The notes beneath the pieces were generated by a model. That model worked only from the letters and a program-made list of their open reading frames with translations. It did no database searches and was not told the origin of the DNA. This document shows positions 26,549 through 63,492 of a stretch of 64,000 bases of DNA, piece after piece. Each line of letters starts with the position of its first letter. The first letter of the stretch is position 1. This DNA comes from Macrostomum lignano (lineage: Eukaryota), in contig NIVC01000583.1 of NCBI GenBank assembly GCA_002269645.1, positions 1 through 64,000 of the forward strand, read 5' to 3'. The position numbers and the translations under genes were made by a program.

Positions 26549-28077
26549 CTAATCGGTCAACCATAGCTCCTGAGGCACATGTGGTGTGGTAGATAGCTTT
26601 CTTGGTCGCTGCTCCAAGAGGTGGTCCAAGCTCAGCTGAATGGAGTTAGGGTCTTTGTCACTGACAATAACCTGTGGAAGCATCAGATGCTCGCTAGTGA
26701 GCCTGGTAAATAGGCTGAGGCCTGAATCATCCAGAGCGACATGCATGGTGGGGAATGCCAATGGGAGGTTGTCAAGCCAAGCAAGACCGCACGCCTTAAG
26801 CATTGTCTTCAGAGTCCTGTGGGCGCTCTCAATCTTCCCGTTGCACTTTGGGTGGTACACTGTGGTGCGCAGATAGTGAAAACCCAGGGCGGACAAGAGT
26901 GTCTTGAAGAGCTCGGACTCAAACTGTGGTCCACTATCAGTGATGACATATAGGAGCACTTCGAAGCGAGAAATCCAGGAAGAGATGAAAGCTGCTCCTA
27001 TACTTTGTGCTGTGATGGTCTCGAATGGTGTGGCCTCTAGCCAGCCTGTGTTGCAGTCAATCATGGTAAGGAGATTTCGAGGTGTAAGACCGCACTGAGT
27101 ATCATGTTTCCTTTTGGGAACTGGAAAAGGGCCTACAATGTCGATGTGTACCATCTTGAACCTGTTGGATGGGAGGTTGAAGGCAGCGCTACTGGCCATC
27201 ATGTGGCGGTCTATCTTGGTGCACTGACAAACCTCGCAGGACCTGCAAAAGACCTTGATCTCTGCGCGTATGCTAGTCCAGTAGTAGCAGCTGATGATCA
27301 GGTTGGCAGTCCTGTGGAATCTGTAATGACCAAGTTCATGAAAATGTTTTAGCAGTGATTCACGCATGGAAATGGGGATGACTGGGCAAGGGTAACCTGT
27401 AGAGGTCTCGCAGAGTATGTGACAGCTGTCTCCAAGTAGAAAGAAGTGGCGATGGTCTGATTTGGAAAGGTGTTCGGCAGCTTGCTGATCAGCAATTGCT
27501 GACAAGTCAGTTGACACTGCACCCTGCTTGTTGGCTACAATGGCAGTCGGCTTGTTGAGTCTGGAAAGTGCATCAGCAACAGCATTGTCTGAGCCACAGA
27601 TATATTGAAAGTCAGTGACATACTCAGACAGGATGTTCATGTAGCGCTAGTTGTGGTTGGAGTTGCCATGGGAGTTGTGCCGGAATGCCTGCTTGTGATC
27701 CATGAAGACCGTGACATGCCTGCCCTCGATCAGGTTCCAGAAGTGAAGCACAGCAAGGTAAGTGGCTAGTAGCTCTCGATCAAATGCTGAATAGGCTCGC
27801 TAGGTGGCAGAGAGCTTCTTACTGAACATGCCGATCAAGGTGGTCTGTTCTCCGATTGTCTGATGCGATGCAGCTCTGACGCTGGTAGCAGAAACATCTG
27901 TGACCATCTGATAGGCCGAGCAGTCTGGATCGGGGTGGTATAGCAGGAGACGCTCGGCGAGCTTCTTCTTGAGGTTGTTGAATGTGGCTTGGTGGATGTC
28001 GCTCCATTGGTAGGATCGAGGAGACCGTAGTGCTGCAGTGAGCAGATCCTGCAATGGGGCTACAGCAGATGCAAAAC
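26549..28077 (-). pseudogene. RNase H and integrase remnants of the outer Gypsy element
   Basis: NAVADALSR, zinc-binding HELGH..C..CEVC, VHIDIVGP, VITDSGPQFES, TTVYHPKCNG.IE..HRTLK. Confidence 0.9.
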
Positions 28078-28081
28078 CGGA

Positions 28082-29063
28082 TGTAGAGAACTGTAAATTA
28101 TAACAAAACGCACTACTTAAAGTAATATTCTAACTAAATCAATTTAAACTCGCAATCTATTTTTAGAATGAGTCATATTTATTTTTAGAAATTCTATTTT
28201 TAGAATGAGTCACATGCAAACAGAAGTGACTCAGAGCCCTACGTAGGACCGACGTTTATTTGATCAAGAAACCGGTTCTCGTGAGTTTTATTTGCTTAAT
28301 TCCATATATGGTAATGATCAAACATTCATGACCTCCTAATCAAACATACGTGACCTAAGTAAATAACCGATTTTGAACCAGTTTTTCACCAACATTTTAC
28401 TATAAATATAAGCGAAAATCCGAGTCAAAAATTCAGACTCGGAGCGGTCTCAAGAAAGACTTTGGAATACGTTAACCAAAGAAGACTCATCTCTGAGAGA
28501 AGAAATCCGGATAGATTGGTAAGCGTTTACCCGAATTAGTTAATTGTTACTAGCGCTAATAAGTTAATTAATTGAATTTACGAGAGCCACTTTTGTCGAC
28601 ACATTTGAGAAAGGCCTCCTTGTTTCCTAGGATACATTCCTAGAGGATTTATTGATTTGAATTGAGTTACCCGTTACGTTTCGGACGTAACGAAGAAGAC
28701 GCCCTTCAGGAGGACCTATTACAGACAGTTAGAGAATTCAATTGTTCATAAGGGCGCACGTGTACGTTCTATTGTTCATTCCGAGCTCGAGGACCGTCAA
28801 GAATTCTGATTCGCTCTCGTGTTGGTCGACCCACAGATAAAGTTAAGGACTCCAAGAAACAACAGTTGTTCACCGGAACCGGCCGCCGCCCAGCTCAGCC
28901 AAGTCAGACAGCGCTGCCCACTACAAGAACCAGACGTCTACAAACCACTAGAGGATCCGCCGCAGTAAGTTATCCGACTTGTAGATACCTAGGCACTTGT
29001 TCCCCAGTGTCTAGAAGTGGGAGTTTATTGAGTGACTGATCACCACTCAATATAAACTCTTCA
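28082..29063 (+). repeat. 5' LTR of the nested element
   Basis: Direct repeat of 38602-39583; TATA-like TATAAAT at 28401. Confidence 0.97.
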
Positions 29064-29515
29064 ACTGGTGATCTCGCCCAGGCTCCAGGCCTAACTCAGG
29101 CTCAATCTGAGGCCTATTCTAGGCACGTCAGGCTAATTCAAGCCAGACCAGGCGGGACTGCTAAAAACACCTGGACAAAAATTAAATTTTTTTTATTGCG
29201 TAACCCTACTGAATTTTTCGTGCCGCCCTACGATTGTTTGCATATAGACTCTTTGATTCACCGCATACCGTTTGCACCACTCAGCTGTTAAATTTTGTGA
29301 ATATCTCATTTCAATCACCCCCTTTCTCTTTGGTAAAGGCGTTATATAGAAAAATTTTCCCCTTGCCTTTTTCGCTTCCTCCTGAGTAAATAACAGCCGC
29401 GCGTGCACACACACACACATACACACACACTTGCTCACCACTTTGAGAGGTCAATCTGGAAAATCCTTTGGAAATTGACCCCAATCTTGACTTGCTGCCA
29501 TTTCCATTTGGAAAT

Positions 29516-32500
29516 ATGGCTCGAAGAAACCCTACAGTGCATCGCGATGTCAAGGAAACTGTTGGAATGTATACTATGGATAAGGATTTTAACACCTTCA
29601 TTGAACACTTTGACCTTGTAACTCGCGAATACGGATTACAAAATCCAGAAAAGGCACTTCTTCTTCCTCCACTGCTAGAAGGCACTGCCAGAGAAATTTA
29701 TGGCAAACTAAATGCTGCTGCTCAGCAAGACTATCATACCTTAGTTACGCAACTAAGAACACAATTCGCCAGATGTGGAACCAATCGATCTGTGCTTCTA
29801 CACAAACTTCATAATCGAAAAATGAGTCCGACGGAATCCTTCCTTACTTTCGTCGATGACGTCCGCAAAATTATTAAAGCGTTGCACCAACCACCACCGC
29901 CGAACCCAGGAGCTCAACCTATCGGACCAGCAGAACTAGCTGCAAGAGAAAGACAACGTCTTGCTGATCAAGAACAAAGCCTAATCCTCCATGTCATTAA
30001 TAATGCTCAACCTTCCCTGCGAGACAGGTTGTTAAGAGAAACCATTGAGACAGAAGAACAACTAATTCGTTGCGGCATGCAATGGGAAGCAAGTGCCCCA
30101 CTGCTAACTTCTCGTAGTAGTGATACAACACAATTGGCAGAACAATTAAGCAAGCTGATGCAGCAACACCAAACTTCTGCGATCATGCTACAGCGACAGA
30201 GATACACTTCGCCACCCACTTGCTACACCTGTGGAAGAATTGGTCATTACGCCAGAGACTGCCGATCACGTGGCAATCCAAGACAATATTACGACAACAG
30301 AAGAAAAATTTGGACTCGTCCTCAAAATCGCAATTGGAACCCACCACAGAATAGACAAGGAAATGCCTTGGTGCCTTACCGACAACAGAGAAATCCTCCT
30401 CCTCCAAGACAGCCTACTCAGGTCCGCAGACAATATGCTCAAGCTATTGAGCCGGAATACACCCAAGTCATTGAACCAGAGTTTAAGATAGAAGACCTTA
30501 TGCCGGATTTCACAATCAATGTCCTTGAGGAGTTTGAAAAACGAAAGGATAGCACAAGCAGCGAAAGTAGCTGCATGATGGATTCTCTGTTAGAAGAAGA
30601 TCCACCCATTCCTACCTCTTCCAAAGCAAGTCCAGTCTTCCGAGAAAACAAAAGACAACAACAAGCTACTCCTAAGCAACAAAGCAATTTATTTAAAGTT
30701 CCGACGATCAATAATCTTTCGGAAACTCACAGAGAGAACGAGTCCCAGGATCTTAAAGAAATACCAACACTCGAAGAAGACAGAGACCCAGCAACTTTTC
30801 AAAACATATTTGAAGAAAGCGTTGACATGTTGCAGATCCTAGTCGATGATATAGACCTGTCAGAAACACCTCCAACACAGGAACCAGACTATGAAAATAT
30901 TGTCTCCCCTCGTCCAGCCCAAGAACATTGGAGACATGACAAGGCCACGAACACTGAATCAAGCCATTTGACACACGAAAAGTTCGCACAGACAGAGGAT
31001 GACACTTATGTTTCCATGAACATAGATAACGAAAGCGACTATGATGACCCGATAACAATAATGGAACCGGCTAACAATCCAACTTTTAACAATAAAACCA
31101 CACATCTTACCGATGTATCGAAACCAGGCGAATTTACTCGTCCGATGTGGCAAGCGCAGCTACCTACACCATTACCATGCTCCAACAAGTGGCACTTTTC
31201 GACTCGCCTTACTCCTCCGCCGTATCCTGAAGATAGTCATGACGAGATTGAAGACACTCCACCAGTACCAACAAGACGAAAGAAAAAACATCCGCTACTG
31301 CAATGCTTCCTCACGATCTTGATGATGGCAATTGTTCCCACGGTACTGCCGTCTCCATCTCCAATGATCTGTCCCACTGATGGAGACATCCAGCCAGTCA
31401 TTTACAAGATTCCTACGGAAATCAAATGCAGTTACTTTAAGACAAACCAAACCAAGCCGCTACCACTAACTATCGAAATATACAAGGCAAATACAAAGAA
31501 GCATCGACAAATGGGAATTGTGTGCTTCAGAGATAAGGATGAAATTGAAAAGGTTTGGCTAGTACAATGGAACCGAATCAGATACTGGCAAACTTCGATG
31601 ATGGTATCACATGAGGAATGTCTTCAATGGAACCAAACCTTGTTTTCTAAGGATGGCGAATTAAAACTCCATGAGACGTCCGCCAGTGGAGCACAACTAT
31701 TCCGCACGAATAACGTAGCCTATGGAAGATACGTCCATTATCATCAAGCGCAATGGCCTGCATACACAGTCTACAACAGCTACCTCATCCGAAATGTCTT
31801 ATTCTACCACAATCCATTTGACAACATGGAATCCATGCAGCTACCACTTGACCAGTGTCACTACAGCTCAGGATATTGTGCTACCTCTAACTACAACAAA
31901 GAAGAAGCTCAAAATTTACCCCTAGCACCGACTTATTTCCACGACTATCGATACCAAATTGAATACAGATCGGATTCCCGCTATGAGGAGCCTAGCCGAA
32001 CCCGCAAATATTTCATTGCATGGGAAGTTAAAACTGAAATTGACTGCAAGCTACAAAAATATCACACTGTTAAAGGAAAATTGCTATCTAACACCTTCCT
32101 TGCCGACTCAGGAGATCTCGCTCTTACATTTCCTAAGCAACCAAGCTACACACACTTGAAATGTAAAGACAAGGACGAGCAACTAATCCTCTCCGACCAA
32201 GAAATCCCAATCGTGCTTAAGGATATGGATAAGAATGTGTTCCTGAAAGTAGTAAATGGAACCTATCCGAGAGAAGATATTACAGAACGACATAAGCGAG
32301 ACCTACCGAAGCCTTCCCTAGTGTCAGCACGACTTTTGGCAGCAAAACTAGCCGCTATGGAACATAAGCTGCACAAGCAACTGAACTATTTACACCGATC
32401 TATGGTCAAACTGACATGCCGAATGCATGAAACCAGTCTAAATTACGCAAGACAGAACTATTATGTCAATCCCACGACGACCTTCAGGAAAATCACAGGG

Positions 32501-35500
32501 ATTGAAAACGTCTTGGCAATTCCGGTTTACGGATATTTGTTAATCTACAAGTGCACACCGATCCAACATTTCAACATTTTGCCAGCAAATACGACAACAA
32601 CCTGCTACGATAAACCTCGAATTGAAGCATTTTTCAATGGAAGGCGAATCCGAGGATTTCTGGACACTGTCCACAATATCATCGTTGGAACTGCCATTCC
32701 AAGACCATGTACCAACGCAGCCAACTACTTCAATTTAAACGATCTACTTCACCAGATTTCATCGGCAGGCAATATAAAGAATATCTCAAACTCGCAAGCT
32801 ATTATAGACGAGACATATGAAATATCGGACCTTCAAGTAAAATTTAACAAAACGATGTACAAACCTTTTGGAGATGTTAAGCTGGACGAAATTACCCCAG
32901 GATGGACTATCAACGATTTCCTGCAAGTCTTCATTTCACAACGACAGGTCCTAACAAAACTGTTCACGAAACGACAGCAACGAGATCCAAATCGACCTAC
33001 ATCTCCGATAGGAATGACTATGCACAATGCCATTCAATCGTTTTGGTCGAATAGCTTTCTAGACCTAATACAAGGGCGAGGAAGCCTATACCAAGGTTTT
33101 CTTTTCTCCAGCGCTTGCATTGTATGGATCCACCTAGCGCTACTCATTCTTGTCACAGTAGCCCGATGCGCAGCAAGAAATTGTCCACAAACTCGAGGCA
33201 TCTTTCAAATAATCAAACAAACAGAAACTACCACTACAGGAGAAGAACCAACCGAGGAAACACCTATGCAAGTTCAAGAAATTAGACCAGAACCTAACGC
33301 ACCAGAAACTTCAAACATTTATCCCAGAATCGAATTTAAGCCAGCAATTCCTCCGCAAATGCCGCCTCCACTACCAACCGACCCAAAATGGCCAGCTAAT
33401 TACGTCTGCACTCTCCAAGCCAACATGGGAAGAGCAATGGCTCAAGTACTTGTCAACAACACGCCCAGCAAAGCACTACTTGATTCCGGAAGTTCCATTA
33501 CAGTCATCACCAGGAGACTGTATGATAAGCTACAACTTCGAATGCGACCATCATCCATCGCTGTTGCTGGAGCAGGTGGACACGCGCTTAATATCCTTGG
33601 ACAAGTTGGGATTATGCTCAAGCTGGCAAATAAACAACTTCCTGTTCAAGCGTTTGTTATTGACCACCTCCCAAGTCAAGATGTTATCATTGGAATCGAC
33701 ACATTTCGACAACTGAATCTACCGTTGACATTTGACTTCAACAAACAGACATTCAAACTGGACAATGTAGAACACCCTTTGGTCAGCCAGGTCCATCTCC
33801 AACCTAAAGTTCATCTGCGACAAGATGTCTTCATACAGCCACAAAGCACTTGTTGGGTTAAGGCACATTTGGCAAGTAACGAAGATGTTGAAGAAGCTAT
33901 GATTTTCGAACCAAGAAAGAAACTACTAACAACAAAGGAAGTTCTAATTCCAACAGCATTGGTTCTTATTAACTCAGAAAAAACAATTCCGGTACAGATT
34001 GTCAACCCTCACCAACATCCCGTTAAGATCTACGCGAAAACCTGCATTGGATATCTTAATACACAAGCCTCCGTTATGCTTATCCAACATACGACAACAA
34101 GGATGTCAAAGCAACAGTTCTTGAAACAAATTGATCTCTCGCAAAGTCCAATCACGGAAGGACAAAAAACACAGGTCAGAGATCTACTTTGGAAGTACAA
34201 TGACGTCTTCTGTCATCATGATTACGACATTGGTCGCGCTCGTGACATCAAGCAGAAAATCGAACTACTACCCCACCAGGAACCCATCCAATGCAAACCA
34301 TACCCAGTCGCAAAACATCTGCAGCAACATTTCGATGAAATCATCGAGAAAATGCTCAAGGCCGGAATCATCAAAAGAACAGTTTCGGCATATTCATCAC
34401 CGTGTCTACTAGTTGAAAAGAAGGAAACAAATGAAAGACGACTTGTCTGTGACTTTCGAGTCTTAAATAAATACATCCCCACAGACCAACAAAGTCTACC
34501 AAAGATTTCGGAACTATTGGCACGACTGAACACAGCTACCCTCTTCACCGTATTTGATCTGAGACATGGCTTCTGGCAAATTGAACTTGAAGAAGAATCA
34601 AAACAATACACAGCATTCAAGACTTACAAGGGAGAAGTCTTCGCCTATCAGAGAAGCCCAATGGGGATTTCCAACTCCCCAGCAACCATGAGCCGCTTAA
34701 CAGCCTACATGCTAGCGGGATGTACGAACCTACTGCATTACGTAGACGATATCCTCGCCTTCGGAGATAATTTCGAACAACTACTGAACGTCATGGAACA
34801 AGCTCTCTCACTCCTTCAAAAACAAGGCCTAAAACTACAACCTACAAAGTGCAAATTCTGCAGAGACTCAGTCCGATATCTAGGACATCATGTCTCCGCA
34901 AGAGGAATTTCACCTGACCCTAATAACGTCGAAAAGGTCAAGAAGTTCCCCAAGCCTACAACACTTACAAAACTACAATCATTCCTTGGATTAGCACAGT
35001 ACTTCAGAAAATTCCTACCAAACTTCGCGCAAACCGCAAAGCCATTATATGAGTTGTTGAAGTTTCCCAAATGGAAGGAAGAAAATTGGAAAACGGAACA
35101 GCAAAACAGTTTTGATAAAATTAAACAGCAACTAACCAGCGACGCTCTGCTCAAACATCCAGACTTCCAAAAACCTTTTATTATCGAAACAGACGCATCA
35201 GGAAGTGGCTTAGGAGCTGTACTACTTCAAGAAACAGACCAGAAAAAGGAAAAACCAGTTGCTTTCATCAGCCGAGCCCTACGGCCGAACGAAACAAAAT
35301 GGTCAGCCACCGAACGTGAACTACTAGCGATCTTATTCGCCCTTCGACAGTTTCATTACTACATATACGGATCACCGCTACCAACCATCATCCGCACAGA
35401 CCACGCACCGCTGACTCATGTCGTCAAAACAAAAGGACAAACGAATAACAGACTTATTCGAATGGTCCTCAAAATTCAGGACTACAACTTTCATCTTGTC

Positions 35501-36955
35501 TACAAACCAGGACCTACAAACAAGGCCGCGGATGCGCTATCAAGAGCATATGAAGTCAATGCGGTTCACCCCATCCCGACAATGACGGATCTACTGAAAG
35601 CACAACAAGAAGATAATTTCTACCAAGCTGTACTCGATGACACAGAAGAAACCGAAAAATCGCTCACCAAGATCGAAAAGAAATTTTTACGGAAGCAAAG
35701 CAACAATCTCATCTTCAAAGAACTAGCACTTTACTGGTTGCACAACAATACTCCAAGATTGTACCTACCATACAACTATCGTGCTACAATCTTACACGAA
35801 CTACACGACACACCTCTAGCCGGACACCTATCCGCCAAAAAAACAATTCACAGGATAGCCCAGTTTTACTTCTGGCCAACAATGAATGCAGACATCCGCA
35901 AGTACTGTCTACAATGCCACTCATGCGCCTCGACAAAGACTGGAAGAAGACAAAAACCGGAACTTCAATCCGTACCAAAAACGACTACATGGGACACGTT
36001 ATCACTTGATATTACCGGACCACTACCACCAGCTCGACAACATGCTATCGATTACACTTATATCCTCACGGCACTAGACGTGTTTTCTAAATTTGCTGTT
36101 GCCATCCCACTACCTGACATCACAGCCACTACCGTTGCTATGGCCTTCTACAATGAAATCATCTGCAAATACGGAACTCCAAAGACCTTAACCTCCGACA
36201 ATGGTACGCAATTTACGTCGCAACTATTCCAACAAGCGGCTAAACTACTAAACATCCAACAAATTTTCACCTCCACCTACAATCCAAAAGCGAACCTAGT
36301 AGAACGATTCCATAGAAATCTACACGAAATGTTGACACACTTCGTCTATAAGCAGCCTGAAGATTGGATCATATATCTACAGTCAGTAACAATGGCCTAC
36401 AACAGCGCAGTGCACCGCTCAACAGAGAACACACCATTCTTCCTTATGTTCTCTCGAGACTTCCAGCCACCAAGCTTACTAGTTCAAAAACTACTACCTT
36501 CTCAGTACGTGGACAAGCCAACAACACTGCAAAAGTTTACTTCACAGCTTCACCTGGCATGGCAAATCGCGAAACACAATTTAGAAAATCAACAGGCAGT
36601 CGCCACCACAAGCAATCATGCATCTACTCTACAAGTAGGAGACATCGTTTACCTACATTATCCTGCGCAACACACGCATAAGCACGCCTTTAAATACAAA
36701 GGACCATTCCGAGTAACGGCACTAGTATCGGCAACAACGGCACGTCTTGCTAATATCCAGGATCCGCATCAGGCTCAATTCTATGTTCACATTCAACGCC
36801 TAAAACGTATCACCAACGACACTACGTTTCTTCCAGAACTACAAAATCCAGATCACACAAAAACAGCAAGCAAACACATTGCTACAGCACATGCCGAAAC
36901 ACAAACAACAAACGCACCACCTATCGGCCATACGTACAATCTAAGACCCCGTTAA
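29516..36955 (+). CDS. Single Gag-Env-Pol polyprotein (2479 aa from the first ATG; the frame is open from 29468)
   Basis: CCHC knuckle CYTCGRIGHYARDC (~30220); hydrophobic signal-like segment (~31290); RHKR (32288); TM segment (~33090-33160); protease LLDSGS (~33475); RT YVDD (~34740); RNase H IETDASGSGLGAVL; integrase HELH..H..C..CHSC, LDITGP, SDNG.QF and GPF motif. Confidence 0.95.
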   Translation: MARRNPTVHRDVKETVGMYTMDKDFNTFIEHFDLVTREYGLQNPEKALLLPPLLEGTAREIYGKLNAAAQQDYHTLVTQLRTQFARCGTNRSVLLHKLHNRKMSPTESFLTFVDDVRKIIKALHQPPPPNPGAQPIGPAELAARERQRLADQEQSLILHVINNAQPSLRDRLLRETIETEEQLIRCGMQWEASAPLLTSRSSDTTQLAEQLSKLMQQHQTSAIMLQRQRYTSPPTCYTCGRIGHYARDCRSRGNPRQYYDNRRKIWTRPQNRNWNPPQNRQGNALVPYRQQRNPPPPRQPTQVRRQYAQAIEPEYTQVIEPEFKIEDLMPDFTINVLEEFEKRKDSTSSESSCMMDSLLEEDPPIPTSSKASPVFRENKRQQQATPKQQSNLFKVPTINNLSETHRENESQDLKEIPTLEEDRDPATFQNIFEESVDMLQILVDDIDLSETPPTQEPDYENIVSPRPAQEHWRHDKATNTESSHLTHEKFAQTEDDTYVSMNIDNESDYDDPITIMEPANNPTFNNKTTHLTDVSKPGEFTRPMWQAQLPTPLPCSNKWHFSTRLTPPPYPEDSHDEIEDTPPVPTRRKKKHPLLQCFLTILMMAIVPTVLPSPSPMICPTDGDIQPVIYKIPTEIKCSYFKTNQTKPLPLTIEIYKANTKKHRQMGIVCFRDKDEIEKVWLVQWNRIRYWQTSMMVSHEECLQWNQTLFSKDGELKLHETSASGAQLFRTNNVAYGRYVHYHQAQWPAYTVYNSYLIRNVLFYHNPFDNMESMQLPLDQCHYSSGYCATSNYNKEEAQNLPLAPTYFHDYRYQIEYRSDSRYEEPSRTRKYFIAWEVKTEIDCKLQKYHTVKGKLLSNTFLADSGDLALTFPKQPSYTHLKCKDKDEQLILSDQEIPIVLKDMDKNVFLKVVNGTYPREDITERHKRDLPKPSLVSARLLAAKLAAMEHKLHKQLNYLHRSMVKLTCRMHETSLNYARQNYYVNPTTTFRKITGIENVLAIPVYGYLLIYKCTPIQHFNILPANTTTTCYDKPRIEAFFNGRRIRGFLDTVHNIIVGTAIPRPCTNAANYFNLNDLLHQISSAGNIKNISNSQAIIDETYEISDLQVKFNKTMYKPFGDVKLDEITPGWTINDFLQVFISQRQVLTKLFTKRQQRDPNRPTSPIGMTMHNAIQSFWSNSFLDLIQGRGSLYQGFLFSSACIVWIHLALLILVTVARCAARNCPQTRGIFQIIKQTETTTTGEEPTEETPMQVQEIRPEPNAPETSNIYPRIEFKPAIPPQMPPPLPTDPKWPANYVCTLQANMGRAMAQVLVNNTPSKALLDSGSSITVITRRLYDKLQLRMRPSSIAVAGAGGHALNILGQVGIMLKLANKQLPVQAFVIDHLPSQDVIIGIDTFRQLNLPLTFDFNKQTFKLDNVEHPLVSQVHLQPKVHLRQDVFIQPQSTCWVKAHLASNEDVEEAMIFEPRKKLLTTKEVLIPTALVLINSEKTIPVQIVNPHQHPVKIYAKTCIGYLNTQASVMLIQHTTTRMSKQQFLKQIDLSQSPITEGQKTQVRDLLWKYNDVFCHHDYDIGRARDIKQKIELLPHQEPIQCKPYPVAKHLQQHFDEIIEKMLKAGIIKRTVSAYSSPCLLVEKKETNERRLVCDFRVLNKYIPTDQQSLPKISELLARLNTATLFTVFDLRHGFWQIELEEESKQYTAFKTYKGEVFAYQRSPMGISNSPATMSRLTAYMLAGCTNLLHYVDDILAFGDNFEQLLNVMEQALSLLQKQGLKLQPTKCKFCRDSVRYLGHHVSARGISPDPNNVEKVKKFPKPTTLTKLQSFLGLAQYFRKFLPNFAQTAKPLYELLKFPKWKEENWKTEQQNSFDKIKQQLTSDALLKHPDFQKPFIIETDASGSGLGAVLLQETDQKKEKPVAFISRALRPNETKWSATERELLAILFALRQFHYYIYGSPLPTIIRTDHAPLTHVVKTKGQTNNRLIRMVLKIQDYNFHLVYKPGPTNKAADALSRAYEVNAVHPIPTMTDLLKAQQEDNFYQAVLDDTEETEKSLTKIEKKFLRKQSNNLIFKELALYWLHNNTPRLYLPYNYRATILHELHDTPLAGHLSAKKTIHRIAQFYFWPTMNADIRKYCLQCHSCASTKTGRRQKPELQSVPKTTTWDTLSLDITGPLPPARQHAIDYTYILTALDVFSKFAVAIPLPDITATTVAMAFYNEIICKYGTPKTLTSDNGTQFTSQLFQQAAKLLNIQQIFTSTYNPKANLVERFHRNLHEMLTHFVYKQPEDWIIYLQSVTMAYNSAVHRSTENTPFFLMFSRDFQPPSLLVQKLLPSQYVDKPTTLQKFTSQLHLAWQIAKHNLENQQAVATTSNHASTLQVGDIVYLHYPAQHTHKHAFKYKGPFRVTALVSATTARLANIQDPHQAQFYVHIQRLKRITNDTTFLPELQNPDHTKTASKHIATAHAETQTTNAPPIGHTYNLRPR

Positions 36956-37085
36956 AAATTTTCGCTTTTGTTCCCCGTGTAGTGACCGGGATAAAGAATA
37001 GCACTACAGCTTCTTCAAGCTTGTCGTAAGAGGCGACTAAACCTGTTTTTCTACGAGCGTTCACGTAACTTCTAGAAACGCCACC

Positions 37086-37736
37086 ATGGACTGCCCGATT
37101 TGTCTCGAAGACTTTTTATGTAAACTACCTTGTATATGTGTCAATAAACATCAGGTTTGTGGTTCTTGCTTAAGCTTTGCACATTACAAAAAACCTTTTA
37201 AAACTTGCCCTGTATGTAGGGGTAACCTCCGTCAATGCATAATATGCAATTCATGGCGCACTGAACAATATTGCCTAAATCAACATTTTATATGCGCGCA
37301 ATGTATCAAGAAACTTGCTTCTCGCTCCCTCTGCCAATGTCCCATATGCGATGCCACCCCTCTCCCTAAAGTTAACAACAAACTTGCATGTATTCAAGCA
37401 AACTATAAACTGCAGCTTCACCCATTCACTTATGCTCTTTTTCCATCAAATGCGATAATTATACGCCTCAGAGCATGGCCCATACCACGTATTGCTCATA
37501 AAACACGTAAATACCTTGTACGCTATTCATCTCTCTATGGTTTTAGCCTCCGACAATTATCTCCAGAAGAAATTGAACATAAACTGTTTAAAATAGTTAC
37601 GGATAAGGCTCTACATCCATGTCCGATCCTCTGTACAGTTCTACCTGCACTTATTCTGCGTAATGACGACTTATCTTACATATTACCACCCCAAGAATCG
37701 TATCAGTATATTAGTTCCGAATCAGAAAATAATTAA
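37086..37736 (+). CDS. Accessory ORF A: tandem double RING-finger (C3HC4-like) protein, 216 aa
   Basis: CPIC..C...H..C..C..CPVC immediately followed by CIIC..C...H..C..C..CPIC. The ATG sits in a GCCACCATGG Kozak context. Confidence 0.88.
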   Translation: MDCPICLEDFLCKLPCICVNKHQVCGSCLSFAHYKKPFKTCPVCRGNLRQCIICNSWRTEQYCLNQHFICAQCIKKLASRSLCQCPICDATPLPKVNNKLACIQANYKLQLHPFTYALFPSNAIIIRLRAWPIPRIAHKTRKYLVRYSSLYGFSLRQLSPEEIEHKLFKIVTDKALHPCPILCTVLPALILRNDDLSYILPPQESYQYISSESENN

Positions 37737-37752
37737 TATCTTGCCCACAGAT

Positions 37753-38349
37753 ATGGAAGACTGCCCGATATGCCTCGACACCAAGCCGTATATGGTGCCT
37801 ACGTGCGCATGGGGCCATCTGGTCTGCAACGACTGTGGCGAAAGAGAGGAAATTACACGATGTCCACTCTGTCGACAAGACAGGGTGTGGTGTATCGTTT
37901 GCGGCGACCTCCCCCAACTCCAATTGTGCACCCAAGGCCATTGGAGTTGCGTTTCTTGTGCCGAAACAATCGCACGCCGCGACATTCGGCACTGCCTAGA
38001 GTGCGGTTGGGCAATGACAACCACAACGCTAGACTACACGCATAGAATACCAGTCGTTCCGGAAACCCAGCTCCACACGGAACAAATAGCCACAATGTCC
38101 ACAGCTGACCTGACGTGGGCCATCCGGACATGGCCCGTGACCTTACGCCAAGTCGTCTTCCGTGACAGACTGCTAGAAATGGGCCGCAACATCACGGTGG
38201 ACACTACAATCACCACCGACGTGGCAGCCTATCTCACCATCCTCGACAGGACAGAAGATACAGGCTACACACCACTTCAGTTCCTATACTGGCCAATGGT
38301 CACCTTAATAATGCGGCTAAAGGCCATGCTAAGGCATGCCTTCGAGTAA
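37753..38349 (+). CDS. Accessory ORF B: tandem double RING-finger protein, 198 aa (likely start MEDCPIC)
   Basis: CPIC..C.WGH..C..C..CPLC followed by CIVC..C.QGH..C..C..CLEC. AG acceptor CCCACAG lies 2 nt before the ATG. Confidence 0.88.
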   Translation: MEDCPICLDTKPYMVPTCAWGHLVCNDCGEREEITRCPLCRQDRVWCIVCGDLPQLQLCTQGHWSCVSCAETIARRDIRHCLECGWAMTTTTLDYTHRIPVVPETQLHTEQIATMSTADLTWAIRTWPVTLRQVVFRDRLLEMGRNITVDTTITTDVAAYLTILDRTEDTGYTPLQFLYWPMVTLIMRLKAMLRHAFE

Positions 38350-38601: not shown

Positions 38602-39583
38602 TGTAGAGAACTGTAAATTATAACAAAACGCACTACTTAAAGTAATATTCTAACTAAATCAATTTAAACTCGCAATCTATTTTTAGAATGAGTCATATTT
38701 ATTTTTAGAAATTCTATTTTTAGAATGAGTCACATGCAAACAGAAGTGACTCAGAGCCCTACGTAGGACCGACGTTTATTTGATCAAGAAACCGGTTCTC
38801 GTGAGTTTTATTTGCTTAATTCCATATATGGTAATGATCAAACATTCATGACCTCCTAATCAAACATACGTGACCTAAGTAAATAACCGATTTTGAACCA
38901 GTTTTTCACCAACATTTTACTATAAATATAAGCGAAAATCCGAGTCAAAAATTCAGACTCGGAGCGGTCTCAAGAAAGACTTTGGAATACGTTAACCAAA
39001 GAAGACTCATCTCTGAGAGAAGAAATCCGGATAGATTGGTAAGCGTTTACCCGAATTAGTTAATTGTTACTAGCGCTAATAAGTTAATTAATTGAATTTA
39101 CGAGAGCCACTTTTGTCGACACATTTGAGAAAGGCCTCCTTGTTTCCTAGGATACATTCCTAGAGGATTTATTGATTTGAATTGAGTTACCCGTTACGTT
39201 TCGGACGTAACGAAGAAGACGCCCTTCAGGAGGACCTATTACAGACAGTTAGAGAATTCAATTGTTCATAAGGGCGCACGTGTACGTTCTATTGTTCATT
39301 CCGAGCTCGAGGACCGTCAAGAATTCTGATTCGCTCTCGTGTTGGTCGACCCACAGATAAAGTTAAGGACTCCAAGAAACAACAGTTGTTCACCGGAACC
39401 GGCCGCCGCCCAGCTCAGCCAAGTCAGACAGCGCTGCCCACTACAAGAACCAGACGTCTACAAACCACTAGAGGATCCGCCGCAGTAAGTTATCCGACTT
39501 GTAGATACCTAGGCACTTGTTCCCCAGTGTCTAGAAGTGGGAGTTTATTGAGTGACTGATCACCACTCAATATAAACTCTTCA
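38602..39583 (+). repeat. 3' LTR of the nested element
   Basis: Same length as the 5' LTR; no mismatch found by eye. Confidence 0.97.
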
Positions 39584-41870
39584 CGGAGATGAAACATCCA
39601 TAGAAACCGATCACACAATTCACACCAAGGAAATGTTGCAGGGCAGCAGTGTTGTGAGGAACTGGCCAGTTTTTGATGGTATTGACTCTCATTTTAAGAG
39701 GTCGGATTCCATTGGAGGAAACATGATGGCTGAGAAAGGTGACTACACTCCTAAGGAAAACATTTGCTGAGCTGAACCTTTAAGCTATGGTGAGCGAGTC
39801 GGGTCAACATGGCTTCTAGGTGTTAGAGATGCTCTTCCTCCGACCTCGAGTAGACCAGAAGGTCATCCAAGTAGGTGATGATGCAAGATAGGCCACGCAG
39901 GACAGAGTCGATGAAGCACTAGAAGGTCTGCGTGGCATTGCAAAGTCGAAAGGGCATCCTAGTCCACTCAAAAAGGCCAAATGGTGTGATGATAGCAGTC
40001 TTGGCGATATCCTTTTCTGCAATGGGGATCTGATGGTAAGCGCGAACCAGATCAAGCTTGCTGAACATTTTTGCGCCATGGAGATAATGAGTGAAACTCT
40101 GGATATGTGGGACCAGGTAACTGTCTGGCTTGGTAGTGCTGTTTAGCACTCAATAGTTGCCACATGGTTGCCATTTGCCAGATGGCTTCCTGTCTAATTT
40201 CTTTGGAACCATGTGGCAAAGAGGCGAAGCCCATGAACTCTTAGATGGATGGATGTACCCTGCATCGATGAGTTGCTAGAATTCATTAGGAGCAATGTGA
40301 AGTTTCTCCAGATAAAGCTGATGCGCTCTGGCGTGCACTGGCTGATGTCTGCCAGTGTTGATCCTATGAACAGTGTCATGCTTGATCACATCCACTGGTG
40401 GTAGCCGACCTCCCTCTACATAGATAAAGACCCTGAAATCGGCCGATCAGCCGCCTGACGCGTGGATTGCAGTCTTTATGGTAGTTCAGAGTGACGTTGA
40501 AGTTGCCGATGGTTGTCGTAGTGACAGGCAGCAGTGGAGTATGGAATGCAGTTGTTGGATCTACCAGCTGGCAAGCTTTGCAGTCGACCAAGAGACCAAA
40601 ATGTGACAGAAAATCGTAGCCAAGGATAGGGTGAACAATGGAGGCCACTATAAAAGTCCATCGATAGGCGCGGTGCAGTCCTTTAATGACAACCTCCAGG
40701 GAGATTACGCCTACAACAGGAATGGTCTCATCTTTGGCAATGGTTAATCGGAATCCTGTTGCTTGGACATTTTGGGATAAGTACTGTGGTAGGATGATAT
40801 AGACACTGCAGCGCCAATATCAACCAGGAACAGTCGGCGACACACATTGAAGAGGAGGTTGACGATAAGACAAGACTTGCACGCCGCTTTGTCTGTGGCA
40901 CTGCTAATTACGGCGTCATGGGTAGTGCCTAGAAGTTTCCTTGGGCCAGATATTCTGGCAAGTTCAAGCGGGATTGCACCAGAGTCCTTTTGTTGGGACC
41001 TATGATGCAAGGCTGGCAACCACTAGATGAGCGCGGGAACTGGCACCAGCATCTACATGTGTGTGTTTGTGCACCATAGTATAGATGTCCTCTGCAGACT
41101 ACTGGTTTTTGGCCTGGGTAGAAGGGCTCCATGCTAGATGTCAGCTGGGACTTCTGCCATGGCCCCAGTGTCTTTGAGTTACCTGCTGCACTCTGAACTG
41201 CATGGACATGGTGGCCAGATGACTGCTGGATAGCCAGCATGGAGTCCACAATGGAAGCAAGCCATGCTGGATCTTTGTCTTGGAAACTGGACAGATGAAG
41301 GTGTAGCTCTGCTGGGAGGCAGCGAAGAAGTGTGGCCTTGACCATGTCTGGGTTCTCCTTGATGTTGCACTATGCCATCTTGGCCTGCAGCCACTGTATG
41401 GTGCTGGGTTTGTCTCTTCCCAGGTCAGAGATGCTCATGACCTCATTAATTTGCTCCTGCTGACTCTTCTGAAGCATCTTCAGTATGACTTGCTTCAATG
41501 TGGTATAGTTGGCTGGAGTGTCCACAGACAATAAAACAGCTGCAATATCCTCTGGTAGATGACAGATCAGGTGGTTGAACTGCATTACCTCGGATGTGAT
41601 GTTTTGAAGGTTGAACTGAGCATCCAACATCCAAAACTATGCATCGGGGTTGCCACAAAAGAATGGTGGTACCTTAAGGGCTACCACAGCTACCGTGGGC
41701 TGGTTGACAGGTGCTGCCGCGACACTCATTCCTTGTGTAGGCAACGTGGCAGGTGCAGGCGTACCCCCGGAGGGCTGTTGGCTGACCACTGATGGTGTGT
41801 TGGTGTTTCCTTCCGCTATTGGATCGTACACATTGAATGAATTGAATGCTCTGAATGAAATACTAGTCAA
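39584..41870 (-). pseudogene. gag-PR-RT remnants of the outer Gypsy element
   Basis: Fragments in several frames with stops and frameshifts (ORFs 41637..41870, 41370..41630, 40929..41345, 40744..41019, 40376..40648, 39919..40149). Confidence 0.88.
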
Positions 41871-44542: not shown

Positions 44543-46788
44543 CATAGAAATCTAGAATACTAACTGGAAGTGAAGGCTTTCGCGGGGGCGTACATACCCG
44601 GGCCGGGATAAAAAGCTCCTCTTCCCCAAAAGTTTTATTTCCCCCAAAATTTTAATGTTTATTTATCATTCTTTCCATTGAAACAATTTTATTTTGCTCA
44701 AATTTTGCTACAATTAAGGAATCAGCCGTTCTCTTCTCATGTGGTAGCGGGACATTAAAAAAGGCGCTATCTTTTGCTGGGAGCTCCAGAGACTGCCTTT
44801 TCTGAAAATTGTTATATACGTTTTTAATTGTGTGCGTTGGGTCAAACAGAAGGAAAATCTTCTTTTCTCGATGGAACGGATGGGGTACGCATGTTTGCAG
44901 AATGCCACCGCAAAGCTTGTGGACAAAAAACGCACGGTTTGCGGAATGGTTGTCAACCAAGATGGTCACTACATTAAGGTTTGTGCGCTGCAGCATCCCC
45001 ATGACGCTCGTGTAGTGCTCGTGCAATATTTCGGCAGTCAACTTGCTGAGGGGGAAAAGTGCGACGACATCGCGGTACTTTCCGGCGATTGACTTGACCA
45101 TGAAGCACAGCATTGTTGAAGCCGGGTTGGCCTCCTGCATGCCAACAATAGACCCGGAAGAGTAGTCTATTCTTCGATTTAGGTGTATCTCATCAATAAT
45201 CAGGTTGACATTACTCTCCATTATTGACAGATTTTGAGTCCGTAGATGAAGGTAATTTTCGTCCGAGACGCCAGGGCTGACAGACAGAGGACTAGAAATC
45301 GCCGTTAGTCGTCTAACTGATGGCAGAACAAGCAGGTCTTGATCCAGCAGCACCTGGTAGCAAGCTGAACTGGTGGACTTCAGCACCATGGCAAACACTA
45401 TCAAACCAGGGGAGTACCGTCTAGCCTCCTTTGCCTGGCAACGAAGCCTAAGCTGCTCCACTATAAACTGGATTTGCTGCATCAGTGGCGTGGCAGAGTC
45501 ATTCGATTCCTCCAGCAAGTTGCACAGGCAATCGATGGCAGCTTCAATCCATTTAGCTTCTGCGCTTCTCGGATTGGGATCAGGGATGCCCCACGATTTT
45601 ACTAAAGCTAATAAGTTTTGAATCTGCGAAAACAAGGTGATCTTTTCGAGATCCAAAAATTGTTCAAATCGCTTCATTGGAACCGGTTGTCCTTTCAAAC
45701 TTACAGAAGCAATCATATCGCGTTGAATTTTTACAGAGCAGACCAGATTCGGGACATCCTCCACATCAATCAGGCAGAACGCAATGGAGTCGGCGCCAAA
45801 CACAGGAACGAATCCAATAGGAATCGGATTGCTCTCTAGCATGGTCTTGATTTCCTCCAACGATCCCACTTTATCCAACGACAGAAACTCCGATGCCGCT
45901 GTTTCTAGCCTGTCACTTTCGGCTTGGTGTCGTAGCCCAGCTGTGGCTGATTCGGTCCGGGAAGTAGAAGCCATTGGCTGCAGTCTTTCCGGAAGTTGAG
46001 GAAAAACAGAGGGGATGGCTCCCTTTCGTAAAACGCGCAGGCTCAGTTGCGCATTTCTCTTGCGCTTTCGACGAGTGTTGGAGTCTTGCGATGTGCTGAT
46101 GAAGTCCGACTCCAAAAAGTGCGCAGAGCACAACCGAGACTCCTTAGTTGGGGCATAGTGCTCTCTGCGAATTCTTCGGAGCCACTCAGTCATCAGTTGT
46201 GGATCATTTAACGGAAAGGCATGGAAAGATGTTTTCACATTCGATTCATTGTTCGAAGTCCTTCTTGCGTAGCCAGATTGGCAATTAAATGCAGCGCATT
46301 TGTATCCCATCTAGGCAAATTTGTGATATTCAGTTTTGGCAGGATTTGGGTGCTAACAGCCGGTTGCCTCTTTGTTATATATATTATTTTCCTGTGCAGA
46401 ATACTGTTTGATGTACATTTCCCTCCTCTCCTCTCGTTTCCCATATTCTTTCCTTCCTCCCAAGAATATCCCCACTCCTATTCAATTGATCGTGCACCAC
46501 TGTAAAGAGCTCTCTGTTTTGCTCCAGTCCAGGGTTTGCTATCACTGTACGCTCGTACAGCATTTACAGTGTACATCTGGGTGCTGTCTGAGCTTGAAGG
46601 GAATGAGAGATGAAGGCATGAGCAACTAGAAAGAGTTTTAAAGGGCTGGGGGGTTTTGGGAGGGTCTTTTGGATGCGGGTTTAGTCACTATAACATTTTC
46701 AAGCTAAAAAGAATCGGCCCGGGTAGGTACGACTTGAACTCCCCGACAAAGAAGCCTTCACTTCCAGTTAGTATTCTAGATTTCTATG
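44543..46788 (-). mobile_element. P-superfamily (THAP-transposase) DNA transposon, probably internally deleted, 2246 bp
   Basis: Perfect 37-bp TIRs CATAGAAATCTAGAATACTAACTGGAAGTGAAGGCTT at 44543-44579 and 46752-46788. 7-bp TSD CCCGTGC at 44536-44542 and 46789-46795. Confidence 0.93.
44652..46310 (-). CDS. THAP-domain P-element/THAP9-like transposase, C-terminally truncated, 552 aa
   Basis: THAP pattern CAAFNC..FHAFP..W..CSAHF..AIPSVF. Catalytic-region motifs LIIDEI, LVDNHSAN and FDPTH.IKN..NN are present, then similarity appears to end. Confidence 0.88.
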   Translation of the reverse strand: MGYKCAAFNCQSGYARRTSNNESNVKTSFHAFPLNDPQLMTEWLRRIRREHYAPTKESRLCSAHFLESDFISTSQDSNTRRKRKRNAQLSLRVLRKGAIPSVFPQLPERLQPMASTSRTESATAGLRHQAESDRLETAASEFLSLDKVGSLEEIKTMLESNPIPIGFVPVFGADSIAFCLIDVEDVPNLVCSVKIQRDMIASVSLKGQPVPMKRFEQFLDLEKITLFSQIQNLLALVKSWGIPDPNPRSAEAKWIEAAIDCLCNLLEESNDSATPLMQQIQFIVEQLRLRCQAKEARRYSPGLIVFAMVLKSTSSACYQVLLDQDLLVLPSVRRLTAISSPLSVSPGVSDENYLHLRTQNLSIMESNVNLIIDEIHLNRRIDYSSGSIVGMQEANPASTMLCFMVKSIAGKYRDVVALFPLSKLTAEILHEHYTSVMGMLQRTNLNVVTILVDNHSANRAFFVHKLCGGILQTCVPHPFHREKKIFLLFDPTHTIKNVYNNFQKRQSLELPAKDSAFFNVPLPHEKRTADSLIVAKFEQNKIVSMERMINKH

Positions 46789-61370: not shown

Positions 61371-63492
61371 GGGGGGCATCATAAACCCGAAAAATCACAA
61401 CTCCGAAAAGCGCTTTTCATCATAAACCCGAAATATCATAAACCCGAAATATCATAAACCCGAAATATCATAACTCCGAAAGTGCTAGCAACGTCCATCA
61501 TAAACCCGAAATATCACAAACCCGAAATATCATATCTCCGAAAACCAAAAAAGCAACGCCCATCACAAACCCGAAATATCATATCTCCGAAAACCAAAAA
61601 GCAACGCCCATCACAAACCCGAAATATCATATCTCCGAAAACCAAAAAAGCAACGCCCATCACAAACCCGAAATATCATATCTCCGAAAACCAAAAAAGC
61701 AACGCCCATCACAAACCCGAAATATCATATCTCCGAAAACCAAAAAAGCAACGCCCATCACAAACCCGAAATATCATATCTCCGAAAACCAAAATAGCAA
61801 CGCCCATCACAAACCCGAAATATCATAAACCCGAAATATCATATCTCCGAAAGTGCTAGCAACGTCAATCATAAACCCGAAATATCACAAACCCGAAATA
61901 TCATATCTCCGAAAACCAAAATAGCAACGCCCATCACAAACCCGAAATATCATATCTTCGAAAACCAAAATAGCAACGCCCATCACAAACCCGAAATATC
62001 ATATCTCCGAAAACCAAAATAGCAACGCCCATCACAAACCCGAAATATCATATCTCCGAAAACCAAAATAGCAACGCCCATCACAAACCCGAAATATCAT
62101 AACTCCGAAAACCAATTCATGGCAATGCCCATCCAAGATCGAAATATGATAAATACGAGCTATCAATATCGTAATCTGCATGTAGATCTTTTAAGAAATG
62201 TCGCTTTCCACTTCGCGGCTCTTTATGTACCGTTATTTTATAATATTGCACCGGAAAGCTACAGCAACAATACAATCATATTGGATGTAGCTAGCTGAAC
62301 ATTGGATAAAGCCAAGAGAAACCAAAGCAGGAACAAAGACCAAGAGAATCCCCCAACTTCTGTTCTGAAGCATAAATAGGTTTTGTTTGCTTCACAGTTA
62401 TAAATATAGGCTGTTACTAAATACATAAGAACTTCAATTTTAGGCAGATGCCACCAGCTGAGATGCGTCCCTCAGATTTCTTAATAAGGGTGTCAATATA
62501 AATCACATGTTCAAAATCCCATTTGTTTTCGTTTTCCCTTCGAGTAATTTTACTTCTTTTAGAAATTAGATAGCGTCAAATAGCAGAATGTGAAGCACTA
62601 ATAGTCCTACTAATTTCACTTACAGTTTTATGCTCTAATAAAAACATTCTGTCAATGTCCATTCTTTGAGTGGATGATAAACATGGTAAGCAGATAGCAA
62701 ACAAAATTTGTGCTAACGATACCTGCACCAATTTTAGAAAAGTGAAGATTAATACGAGCACGCGATGATAAGCAATAACGATCGAAACAGGATCGTTCAA
62801 TTTGCTCAAATTTAGTTAATTTGCACCTTTTAAACAAATCCCCGCTCACTTAGCAAAAAATACACGCGGTACGCATGATCTATGTGATAATCAAAGCACA
62901 AGAACATAAAAAAGAATAATTACGTAGATTAATATTTTTGGTCATCTGCTGGTTGCTATTTTGGTTTTCGAAGTTATGATATTTCGGGTTTGTGATGGGC
63001 GTTGCTATTTTGGTTTTCGGAGATATGATATTTCGGGTTTGTGATATTTCGGGTTTATGATTGACGTTGCTAGCACTTTCGGAGATATGATATTTCGGGT
63101 TTATGATATTTCGGGTTTGTGATGGGCGTTGCTATTTTGGTTTTCGGAGATATGATATTTCGGGTTTGTGATATTTCGGGTTTATGATTGACGTTGCTAG
63201 CACTTTCGGAGATATGATATTTCGGGTTTATGATATTTCGGGTTTGTGATGGGCGTTGCTATTTTCGTTTTCGGAGATATGATATTTCGGGTTTATGATA
63301 TTTCGGGTTTGTGATGGGCGTTGCTATTTTCGTTTTCGGAGATAAGATATTTCGGGTTTATGATATTTCGGGTTTGTGATGGGCGTTGCTATTTTGGTTT
63401 TCGGAGATATGATATTTCGGGTTTATGATATTTCGGGTTTATGATGGGAAGTGTTTTCGGAGTTGTGATTTTTCGGGTTTATGATGGCGACC
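61371..63492. mobile_element. Foldback/MULE-like non-autonomous element with long, internally repetitive inverted arms
   Basis: Left arm ~61371-62110 and right arm ~62950-63492 are inverted arrays of CATCAC/TAAACCCGAAATATCATATCTCCGAAAACC units. 9-bp TSD CACACAAAA at 61362-61370 and 63493-63501. Termini begin with GG. Confidence 0.88.

Follow-up and report, generated by a model that had tools for sequence, protein, structure and literature searches.

Introduction

Errantiviruses with an envelope (Env) of the herpesvirus glycoprotein B (gB) type and the gene order GAG-ENV-POL have been described in Nematoda, Bryozoa and Platyhelminthes (Chary and Hayashi, eLife 2026; PMC13524379). Their gB-type ectodomains are flanked by a signal peptide and a transmembrane (TM) domain or by two TM domains, and the table of that paper contains one element from the flatworm Macrostomum lignano, Platyhelminthes_Rhabditophora_Mlig_errantivirus_2, with a long terminal repeat (LTR) of 864 bp. 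Here we describe a Ty3/gypsy LTR element in a window of 64,000 nucleotides from the same species (GenBank assembly GCA_002269645.1, contig NIVC01000583.1, positions 1 to 64,000, forward strand). It encodes Gag, an Env-like segment and Pol in a single open reading frame (ORF), followed by two ORFs for RING-type zinc-finger proteins. The best explanation of this sequence, to which we give a probability of about 0.72, appears to be one membrane-crossing Gag-Env-Pol precursor.

The element shares with Mlig_errantivirus_2 a Ty3/gypsy Pol, a gB-type Env, the order GAG-ENV-POL, a flatworm host and a 12-nt primer-binding site (PMC13524379). A sister family in the same genome, with 63% identity in Env, an LTR of ~864 bp and the same primer site, is likened to Mlig_errantivirus_2 because its LTR length and primer site match the listing (PMC13524379). 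The LTR of our element, in contrast, measures 982 bp and has no BLAST match to the sister LTR. The element is therefore a distinct family of the published kind, set apart from Mlig_errantivirus_2 by the listing of the latter.

A flipped ENV-POL order is also found in nematode endogenous retroviruses (NERVs; Sacco et al. 2022, J Gen Virol 103:1739, as cited in PMC13524379). The homologues of our Env include the Meloidogyne protein P0063, in which env is followed by protease (PR) and reverse transcriptase (RT); the host phylum of the NERVs differs from ours. NERVs reportedly have a continuous gag-env-pro-pol ORF, a nyamivirus-like glycoprotein and extra 3' ORFs, which are said to encode a small hypothetical protein or a helicase and not tandem RING fingers. 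If so, in-frame fusion would be known too.

Two other kinds of element invite comparison. Atlas virus of Ancylostoma ceylanicum, a member of the Belpaoviridae, has a stop-free 2828-residue polyprotein with Gag, Pol and a membrane-anchored glycoprotein, between identical LTRs (PMC9094657). It differs from our element in its Gag-Pol-Env order, with Pol before the membrane part, in its class II phlebovirus-like GN-GC and in its Bel/Pao RT with a YVDN motif (PMC9094657); by order, Env class and RT motif (YVDD), our element falls outside the Belpaoviridae. Cer1, with its CERV gene (PMC10309623), and bdelloid LTR elements with ORF3s (PMC5408684) are Ty3/gypsy elements that express non-env 3' genes from spliced RNA. 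CERV is an RNA-export factor, and the rotifer ORF3s encode esterases, exonucleases or TM proteins; no RING domain is named for either in these texts.

Results

The polyprotein ORF is stop-free over 2479 codons, and the remaining two forward frames hold 99 and 131 stops. At its base composition, the 1045-codon stretch comprising linker, env and tail would be stop-free by chance with a probability of ~1e-25. The first-pass annotation, made from the letters of the window, had read this ORF as Gag, an acidic and Pro-rich linker, a TRRKKKH motif with a hydrophobic segment, an envelope region with a furin-type RHKR, a TM helix and Pol, with a CCHC knuckle near 30220 and the helix at about 33090-33160. 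Translation, Pfam domains in that order, composition and hydropathy bear out each of these features (Table 1). The proposed Cys-rich character of the Env region proved to be mild (12 Cys in 575 residues, compared with 13 in 1179 residues of Pol); six N-glycosylation sequons are also present. The annotation had let the element coincide with 29516..36955, which is correct for the ORF but leaves out the LTRs and the two further ORFs inside the element; the spliced RNA and the pseudoknot described below are likewise absent from it.

Table 1. Features of the element in window coordinates
Feature	Position	Strand	Evidence and remarks
Target-site duplication, 5' copy	28078..28081		CGGA
5' LTR	28082..29063	+	982 bp, TG...CA; TATAAA at 28401; donor-like GTAAG at 28519 and 28965
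Primer-binding site	29066..29077	+	12-mer identical to that listed for the published flatworm element
Polyprotein ORF, Gag-linker-signal-Env-TM-tail-PR-RT-RH-IN	29516..36955	+	2479 aa; translation, Pfam
Gag with CCHC knuckle	29516..30280 (knuckle 30218-30265, aa 235-250)	+	Pfam zf-CCHC, E 3.8e-6; dN/dS 0.05
Linker, acidic, Pro-rich, fast-evolving	30281..31270	+	17.5% D/E, 12% P; dN/dS 0.39
Basic cluster and hydrophobic segment, putative internal signal or signal-anchor	31271..31360	+	TRRKKKH from 31271; hydropathy 2.06; K+R 5 before, 0 after
Predicted class III ectodomain (like herpes gB and chu- and nyamivirus G)	31361..33085	+	fold, Pfam; furin-type RHKR at 32288-32299 (aa 925)
Predicted TM anchor, then basic Cys-bearing tail, putatively cytosolic	33098..33154	+	hydropathy 2.47; K+R 1 before, 3 after
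Aspartic protease, LDSGS	33431..33727 (aa 1306-1404)	+	Pfam
Reverse transcriptase (YVDD) and RNase H	34415..35485 (RT aa 1634-1793, RNase H aa 1858-1990)	+	Pfam
Integrase, H2C2 zinc finger and core	35768..36286 (aa 2085-2257)	+	Pfam
Non-coding RNA: predicted H-type pseudoknot and two hairpins, just past the polyprotein stop, before ORF 1	36974..37037	+	alignment, covariation
Accessory ORF 1, 216 aa, tandem RING-type zinc fingers and helical C-terminal part	37086..37736	+	dN/dS 0.22
Putative spliced-exon start	37751..37752	+	CAG of the acceptor runs to 37750; ORF 2 ATG follows 2 nt later
Accessory ORF 2, 198 aa, tandem SIAH-type RING fingers and helical C-terminal part	37753..38349	+	paralogue of ORF 1
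3' LTR	38602..39583	+	identical to 5' LTR; short purine tract directly upstream
Target-site duplication, 3' copy	39584..39587		CGGA
RH, RNase H; IN, integrase; K+R, lysine plus arginine count; dN/dS, ratio of non-synonymous to synonymous substitution rates.

Compared by sequence with the chains in the PDB, the ectodomain gave nothing useful (best E value, 0.26), so a fold search was needed. The AlphaFold2 monomer of Env, built from a 76-row alignment, has a mean confidence (pLDDT) of 80 and features long paired strands and a 47-residue helix past the furin site. All PDB matches listed by Foldseek are herpesvirus gB structures, the best with an E value of 6e-21 over ~650 aligned columns at 12% identity (TM-scores, 0.42-0.46). 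The BFVD fold search adds nyami-, chu- and rhabdo-like glycoproteins, and Pfam Monjiviricetes_fusion matches the middle region with an E value of 1.4e-5, under its cut-off. Judged from the predicted model, the segment between Gag and Pol belongs to the class III fusogens and is a viral envelope protein, as the first-pass annotation had supposed. Env is under purifying selection: compared with a 94%-identical copy, its two halves have dN/dS values of 0.14 and 0.06, next to 0.016 for RT-RNase H and 0.39 for the linker. The linker is only 24-26% identical to that of the sister family.

Just two 19-residue windows of the polyprotein exceed a hydropathy of 2.0, residues 593-611 (31292-31348) and 1195-1213 (33098-33154); the next highest value is 1.52. 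These two windows bracket the Env region, and the charge differences across them (Table 1) run in the same direction in four relatives from the same genome. Twenty-eight aligned homologues carry a CCHC knuckle upstream. In 19 of them env is preceded by a strongly hydrophobic segment, and Lys plus Arg are more numerous before this segment than after it in 17 of the 19; a strong second helix is present in 14, positive-inside in nine. The signal of the sister family, at 24-27% identity, keeps a basic n-region, a hydrophobic core and a cleavage-like A-x-A or A-x-M end, and its multibasic furin site is also kept. The first-pass annotation had placed the ectodomain in the lumen of the endoplasmic reticulum (ER), with Gag and Pol left in the cytosol by virtue of the internal signal. 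The positive-inside flanks of the element and its relatives fit this model, which stays likely. Short conserved islands that follow the knuckle, and others ahead of PR, RT and IN, may be protease sites.

The proposed precursor would be translated from unspliced genomic RNA. Gag and the linker would be synthesised in the cytosol, after which the basic-plus-hydrophobic segment would act as an internal signal and the ectodomain would be threaded into the ER lumen. The second helix would halt transfer and return PR-RT-RH-IN to the cytosol. Signal peptidase would free the N-terminus of Env, or the signal segment would be retained as a first anchor; furin would cleave Env at RHKR. The protease of the element, dimerised by Env trimers or by Gag clustering on the membrane, would release Gag and the enzymes. 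The capsid and Pol, the latter tied to the Env tail, would thus be brought to the fusogen-bearing membrane, and enveloped particles could spread from cell to cell into germline or stem cells.

Several points weigh against this reading. The topology was judged from hydropathy and charge counts only. The element's own signal has a poor cleavage motif with prolines near the site, and thus may stay uncleaved. The Env model has a pTM of 0.59 and deviates from gB by an r.m.s. of 12-17 Å. Of 288 candidates, 40 were scored; none of these is a near-identical copy (at least 98%), and the best reach 91-92% identity. The element is known from sequence alone. The same polyprotein and topology could also operate with no extracellular virion: the signal would stay uncleaved, Gag would be tethered until the protease acts, and the element would rely on internal budding, local cell-cell fusion or extracellular vesicles. 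The lack of a clean A-x-A end in the element's signal is compatible with this, as is the two-TM flanking reported for other gB-type ectodomains (PMC13524379). However, the sister family and many distant homologues show signal-peptide-like ends followed by a conserved P-M/L-x-C mature start, and conservation extends to the furin site and to the class III fold in full. We regard a cycle with no extracellular virion as improbable.

The fused layout recurs in the genome. A search with env gave 74 matches (72 scored of 262 candidates), 11 of which lie in open frames of >2400 residues. Thirteen copies were fetched, 11 picked for their long frames and two for high identity. All 13 have the same Gag start in the ORF; ten have a single ORF of >2400 residues from that start, two of these stopping early within the integrase tail, and three are broken. 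In a HMMER scan of 1.84 billion representatives we found 75 homologue clusters (a word-index protein search gave only two relatives). The same protein contains an upstream CCHC knuckle in 29 clusters, a downstream PR or RT in 18, both in 11 and an upstream RT or IN in none; many of these sequences are fragments. Ten relatives were looked up; those with a name come from Macrostomum lignano, from Meloidogyne enterolobii and from an entry with the label of a gammaproteobacterial metagenome-assembled genome, probably a contaminating animal contig. The closest named protein is likewise from M. lignano. Contigs from independent runs, mostly of copies ~93-95% identical, bridge linker, signal and env (X2, X3) and TM and protease (X1).

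These data bear on whether the fusion is an assembly chimera, a check that the first-pass annotation had set, or a chance insertion of env into one gag-pol copy. Apart from the missing near-identical twin of the exact copy, nothing was found in favour of either. Both are refuted by the in-frame layout, which ten of the 13 copies share with 11 of the 75 distant clusters and which contigs from separate runs also show; the probability left is close to nil. A second, distant family with a single Gag-Env-Pol ORF is represented in M. lignano by P0004 (2852 aa; Env identity, 28%), in the order Gag knuckle, signal, Env, TM, PR, RT, IN. Some distant relatives appear to have two protease-like motifs, located after Env (P0011, P0055, P0063) or flanking it (P0017).

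The element as a whole measures 11,502 bp (~11.5 kb). Its two LTRs are 100% identical with TG...CA ends, the primer site begins two bases past the 5' LTR, and the insertion is recent and intact. LTRs, primer site, target-site duplication and the Pol order PR-RT-RH-IN are those of Ty3/gypsy elements. The nearest solved structure to its RT is that of Ty3 (E value, 1.6e-59; next group, 8e-42; retroviral RTs, 1e-38 or weaker), a ranking by similarity only. With GAG, ENV and POL uninterrupted in that order and a gB-like ectodomain between a signal or TM segment and a TM segment, the element is best explained as a Ty3/gypsy (Metaviridae) errantivirus of the GAG-ENV-POL, herpes simplex virus/gB-env type in a flatworm. 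We also considered the heat-induced LTR type of PMC12801592 and rejected it, as the LTR contains no three-unit or two-unit heat-shock element; the main text of that paper does not mention env, ORFs or RING domains, and a whole-word search of its supplement gave no LTR row.

Contigs from sequencing runs contain a joint with GT..AG ends, 28964-37751, that links a consensus LTR donor (28965) with an acceptor preceding the start codon of RING ORF 2 by 2 nt. It is present in runs X1 and X3, from two studies (two of four runs), and absent from X2 and X15. Two points weigh against reading it as a splice junction. The joints (15 of 22 listed) come from run contigs, none of the runs is on record as RNA, and their status as RNA is a guess. 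Moreover, the shorter side of this joint comprises just 30 letters, and the intervening stretch is given as 'not known'. Two other candidates were rejected: loose ends at 36973 in three runs, which might have indicated splicing to RING gene 1, match genomic DNA of the sister family, and the joint 32326-36740 has GC..CG ends with five shared letters and is a genomic deletion copy.

This deletion derivative has six matches in the genome (C301, C352, C525, C1192, C2828 and C2869; loci L034-L039). It is 91% identical to the element at the DNA level, and its joint is seen in runs X2 and X3. The five copies checked all have different 5' flanks and are therefore independent insertions of recent date. 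The deletion keeps the frame: the ORF runs through Gag, the linker, the signal and the Env half that ends 12 residues beyond the furin site, and continues in the integrase tail. The TM anchor, PR and RT are lost; the pseudoknot and both RING genes are retained.

Both the LTR splice and the deletion derivative, with its Gag, signal and N-terminal half of Env, could be taken to mean that the single ORF is a matter of layout only. Most of the Gag, Env or Pol would then derive from RNAs that are spliced or truncated, or deletion derivatives would supply additional Gag, and the 1:1:1 precursor would be a minor product. Against this, no env-skipping or LTR-to-env joint is present among the 15 of 22 listed; removal of env from all gag-pol RNA by splicing, which the first-pass annotation had named as fatal to its model, thus finds no counterpart there. 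The internal signal is the sole signal, there being no N-terminal one by hydropathy. Finally, no GT[AG]AG donor occurs in the polyprotein ORF (0 vs 3.5 expected, p = 0.017), although this depletion is weak, being significant in three of five ORFs, two of them close kin, after several motifs had been tried. We regard separate production of the three parts as quite unlikely and retain the common precursor. Equal amounts of Gag, Env and Pol would be expected only if there is no other source of Gag; the derivative, which has Gag without Pol, could shift the ratio.

The two accessory ORFs lie between the polyprotein stop and the 3' LTR and are 27% identical over their zinc-finger part. In 11 members of the RING family, 15 of the 16 Cys/His ligands are invariant and the sixteenth nearly so, defining two RING-type modules. 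The first ends in an invariant C-P-x-C-R, which is typical of E2-activating RINGs. The proteins share with SIAH/SINA E3 ligases the ring C-x2-C...C-x3-H-x2-C...C-P-x-C-R, but differ from SIAH in having two RING-like modules in tandem and an additional helical domain, and in lacking the SIAH substrate-binding domain. Pfam Sina_RING matches with an E value of 1.2e-6 and a score of 28.9, just below the cut-off of 29.3. In the predicted structure (pLDDT 94), residues 1-46 superpose on RING domains with ~2 Å over 41-45 residues; the C-terminal helical part matches common helical bundles only (Z of 6.2 or less). ESM Atlas matches, all <0.9 and to giant-virus RING clusters, are leads only. No full-length homologue was found outside the genome of M. 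lignano, and ORF 2 has no relative in metagenome contigs. The dN/dS values are 0.09-0.28 in five of eight pairs, the other three being saturated. A CAG stands 0-2 nt upstream of the ATG in six of six second-position RING genes and in none of six first-position genes.

On this sequence and model evidence, the most likely role of the RING proteins is that of ubiquitin ligases modulating host defence. The Foldseek matches of the model, which are all weak (best, SIAH1 RING-ZnF1, E value 0.044), speak against this, as does the patchy occurrence of the genes: three of the 13 fetched copies have no match, and the first gene is truncated in three more, although the polyprotein is intact in some of these copies. 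The RING genes are thus dispensable in cis. They might instead be passive fragments of host SIAH-like genes, or zinc-finger RNA- or DNA-binding regulators resembling Rev or CERV. Their loss or truncation in several copies is in keeping with that idea, and so are the restriction of the SIAH-like match in sequence searches to the first RING and the precedent of Cer1, whose spliced 3' gene is an RNA-export regulator (PMC10309623). Purifying selection, the conserved splice acceptor, repeated duplication and the invariant C-P-x-C-R argue otherwise, and we think a passenger or nucleic-acid-binding role fairly unlikely.

A genome search for RING genes yielded 150 matches scored of 212 candidates. Three or more tandem RING genes per element were seen at L032, L041, C272 and C4009. 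At L041, two unrelated ORFs (126 and 185 aa; 542-2001 in reverse strand numbering) take the place of pol, and the pseudoknot and three RING genes follow them. L040 and L043 each have two RING genes and no pol match within 4 kb; the genes of L040 lie ~400 nt past an LTR end, and no primer site was found there. These two loci may be mini-elements or nested insertions. The copy on C717 (L021) is 94% identical in the polyprotein, 85% in RING gene 1 and 33% in RING gene 2, with DNA identity falling at ~37750, and in a tree of 16 sequences, which has long branches, the RING 2 genes of the two elements are placed in separate clades. This pattern suggests cassette exchange at the splice acceptor. RING gene 1 of the sister family (L027, L028, L022) starts with MGN, followed in one subfamily by Ser at 5-6, which we take to resemble an N-myristoylation signal; the element's own copy lacks this extension.

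Just past the polyprotein stop, a 64-nt block has stayed conserved even between families with saturated synonymous sites. This block can be folded into an H-type pseudoknot and two hairpins with 96.5% of cells paired in nine distinct rows, compared with 29-43% in slid controls; the rows are related, represent few independent events and are those from which the structure was derived. Two-sided changes occur in three of 19 pairs, two of them in the pseudoknot stem. The pattern has 97 matches in the genome, compared with none for the reversed control, and none in viral contigs. An Rfam scan gave no family, only a chance match to mir-7964 (E value, 8.6). Our first guess is that the pseudoknot controls expression of RING gene 1; splice control, cap-independent translation, a nuclease block or packaging are alternatives. 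Readthrough or frameshifting from pol into RING gene 1 was set aside, given that the spacer between stop and structure varies (~10-18 nt) and that the frames differ between families.

Outside the element, the window contains an integrase remnant of another gypsy-type element on the opposite strand (26549-27640, -), ~440 bp from the 5' LTR, and an ORF with a THAP and a transposase-like RNase H domain (44652-46310, -), which is a P-element-like DNA transposon gene. At 720-1600 and 61435-63447 there are long microsatellite-like arrays and a 221-bp perfect inverted repeat that has 49- and 65-bp tandem units, possibly a foldback element.

Discussion

The first-pass annotation had implied that an env between gag and pol would be highly novel. 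This is not the case, as the GAG-ENV-POL order is already in PMC13524379. The main text of that paper mentions no RING genes, spliced RNAs or pseudoknot and does not use the words fused, polyprotein, accessory or frameshift. The headline layout of our element is a confirmation and adds a further family; new are the RING cassette, its probable spliced RNA and the pseudoknot. In the literature surveyed, with subscription papers, eLife sequence files and bioRxiv supplements outside its scope, we found neither RING accessory genes nor such a pseudoknot in LTR elements, and no counterpart of the LTR joint to the second gene or of the recently spread derivative with Gag and half of Env. The survey also yielded no description of Macrostomum LTR elements with an envelope, or of membrane-spanning retroelement polyproteins, beyond the papers cited.

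With env inside the polyprotein, the spliced mRNA that serves env in retroviruses could serve accessory genes instead, from the LTR donor to the acceptor before RING gene 2; expression of RING gene 1 would probably depend on the pseudoknot region. Viruses are known to use RING ligases, such as ICP0 of herpesviruses and IE2 and PE38 of baculoviruses. It is tempting, if speculative, to picture a complex invertebrate retrovirus in which env, once moved into the polyprotein, left the 3' position served by splicing vacant for RING ligases. Like Vif or ICP0, these might degrade defence factors of the Piwi-interacting RNA or double-stranded RNA pathway type, with the pseudoknot controlling the first ligase, and the deletion derivative might release the N-terminal half of Env as a parasite or entry interferer. 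The RING array, with two to about five genes per element, would be swapped between close relatives and would expand and contract. We put this picture forward tentatively, as a possibility with the odds against it.

In the proposed precursor, Pol would lie behind a membrane anchor, and Gag, Env and Pol would be made in equal amounts; in the literature surveyed we found no test of how a retroelement copes with either. Topology and processing can be put to the test, since the copy is intact and transgenic tools exist for its flatworm group. If functional, the RING cassette with its spliced RNA and pseudoknot would be an example, in a Ty3/gypsy lineage, of accessory counter-defence in the style of retroviruses. 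The targets of the RING proteins would then point to host factors directed against retroelements.

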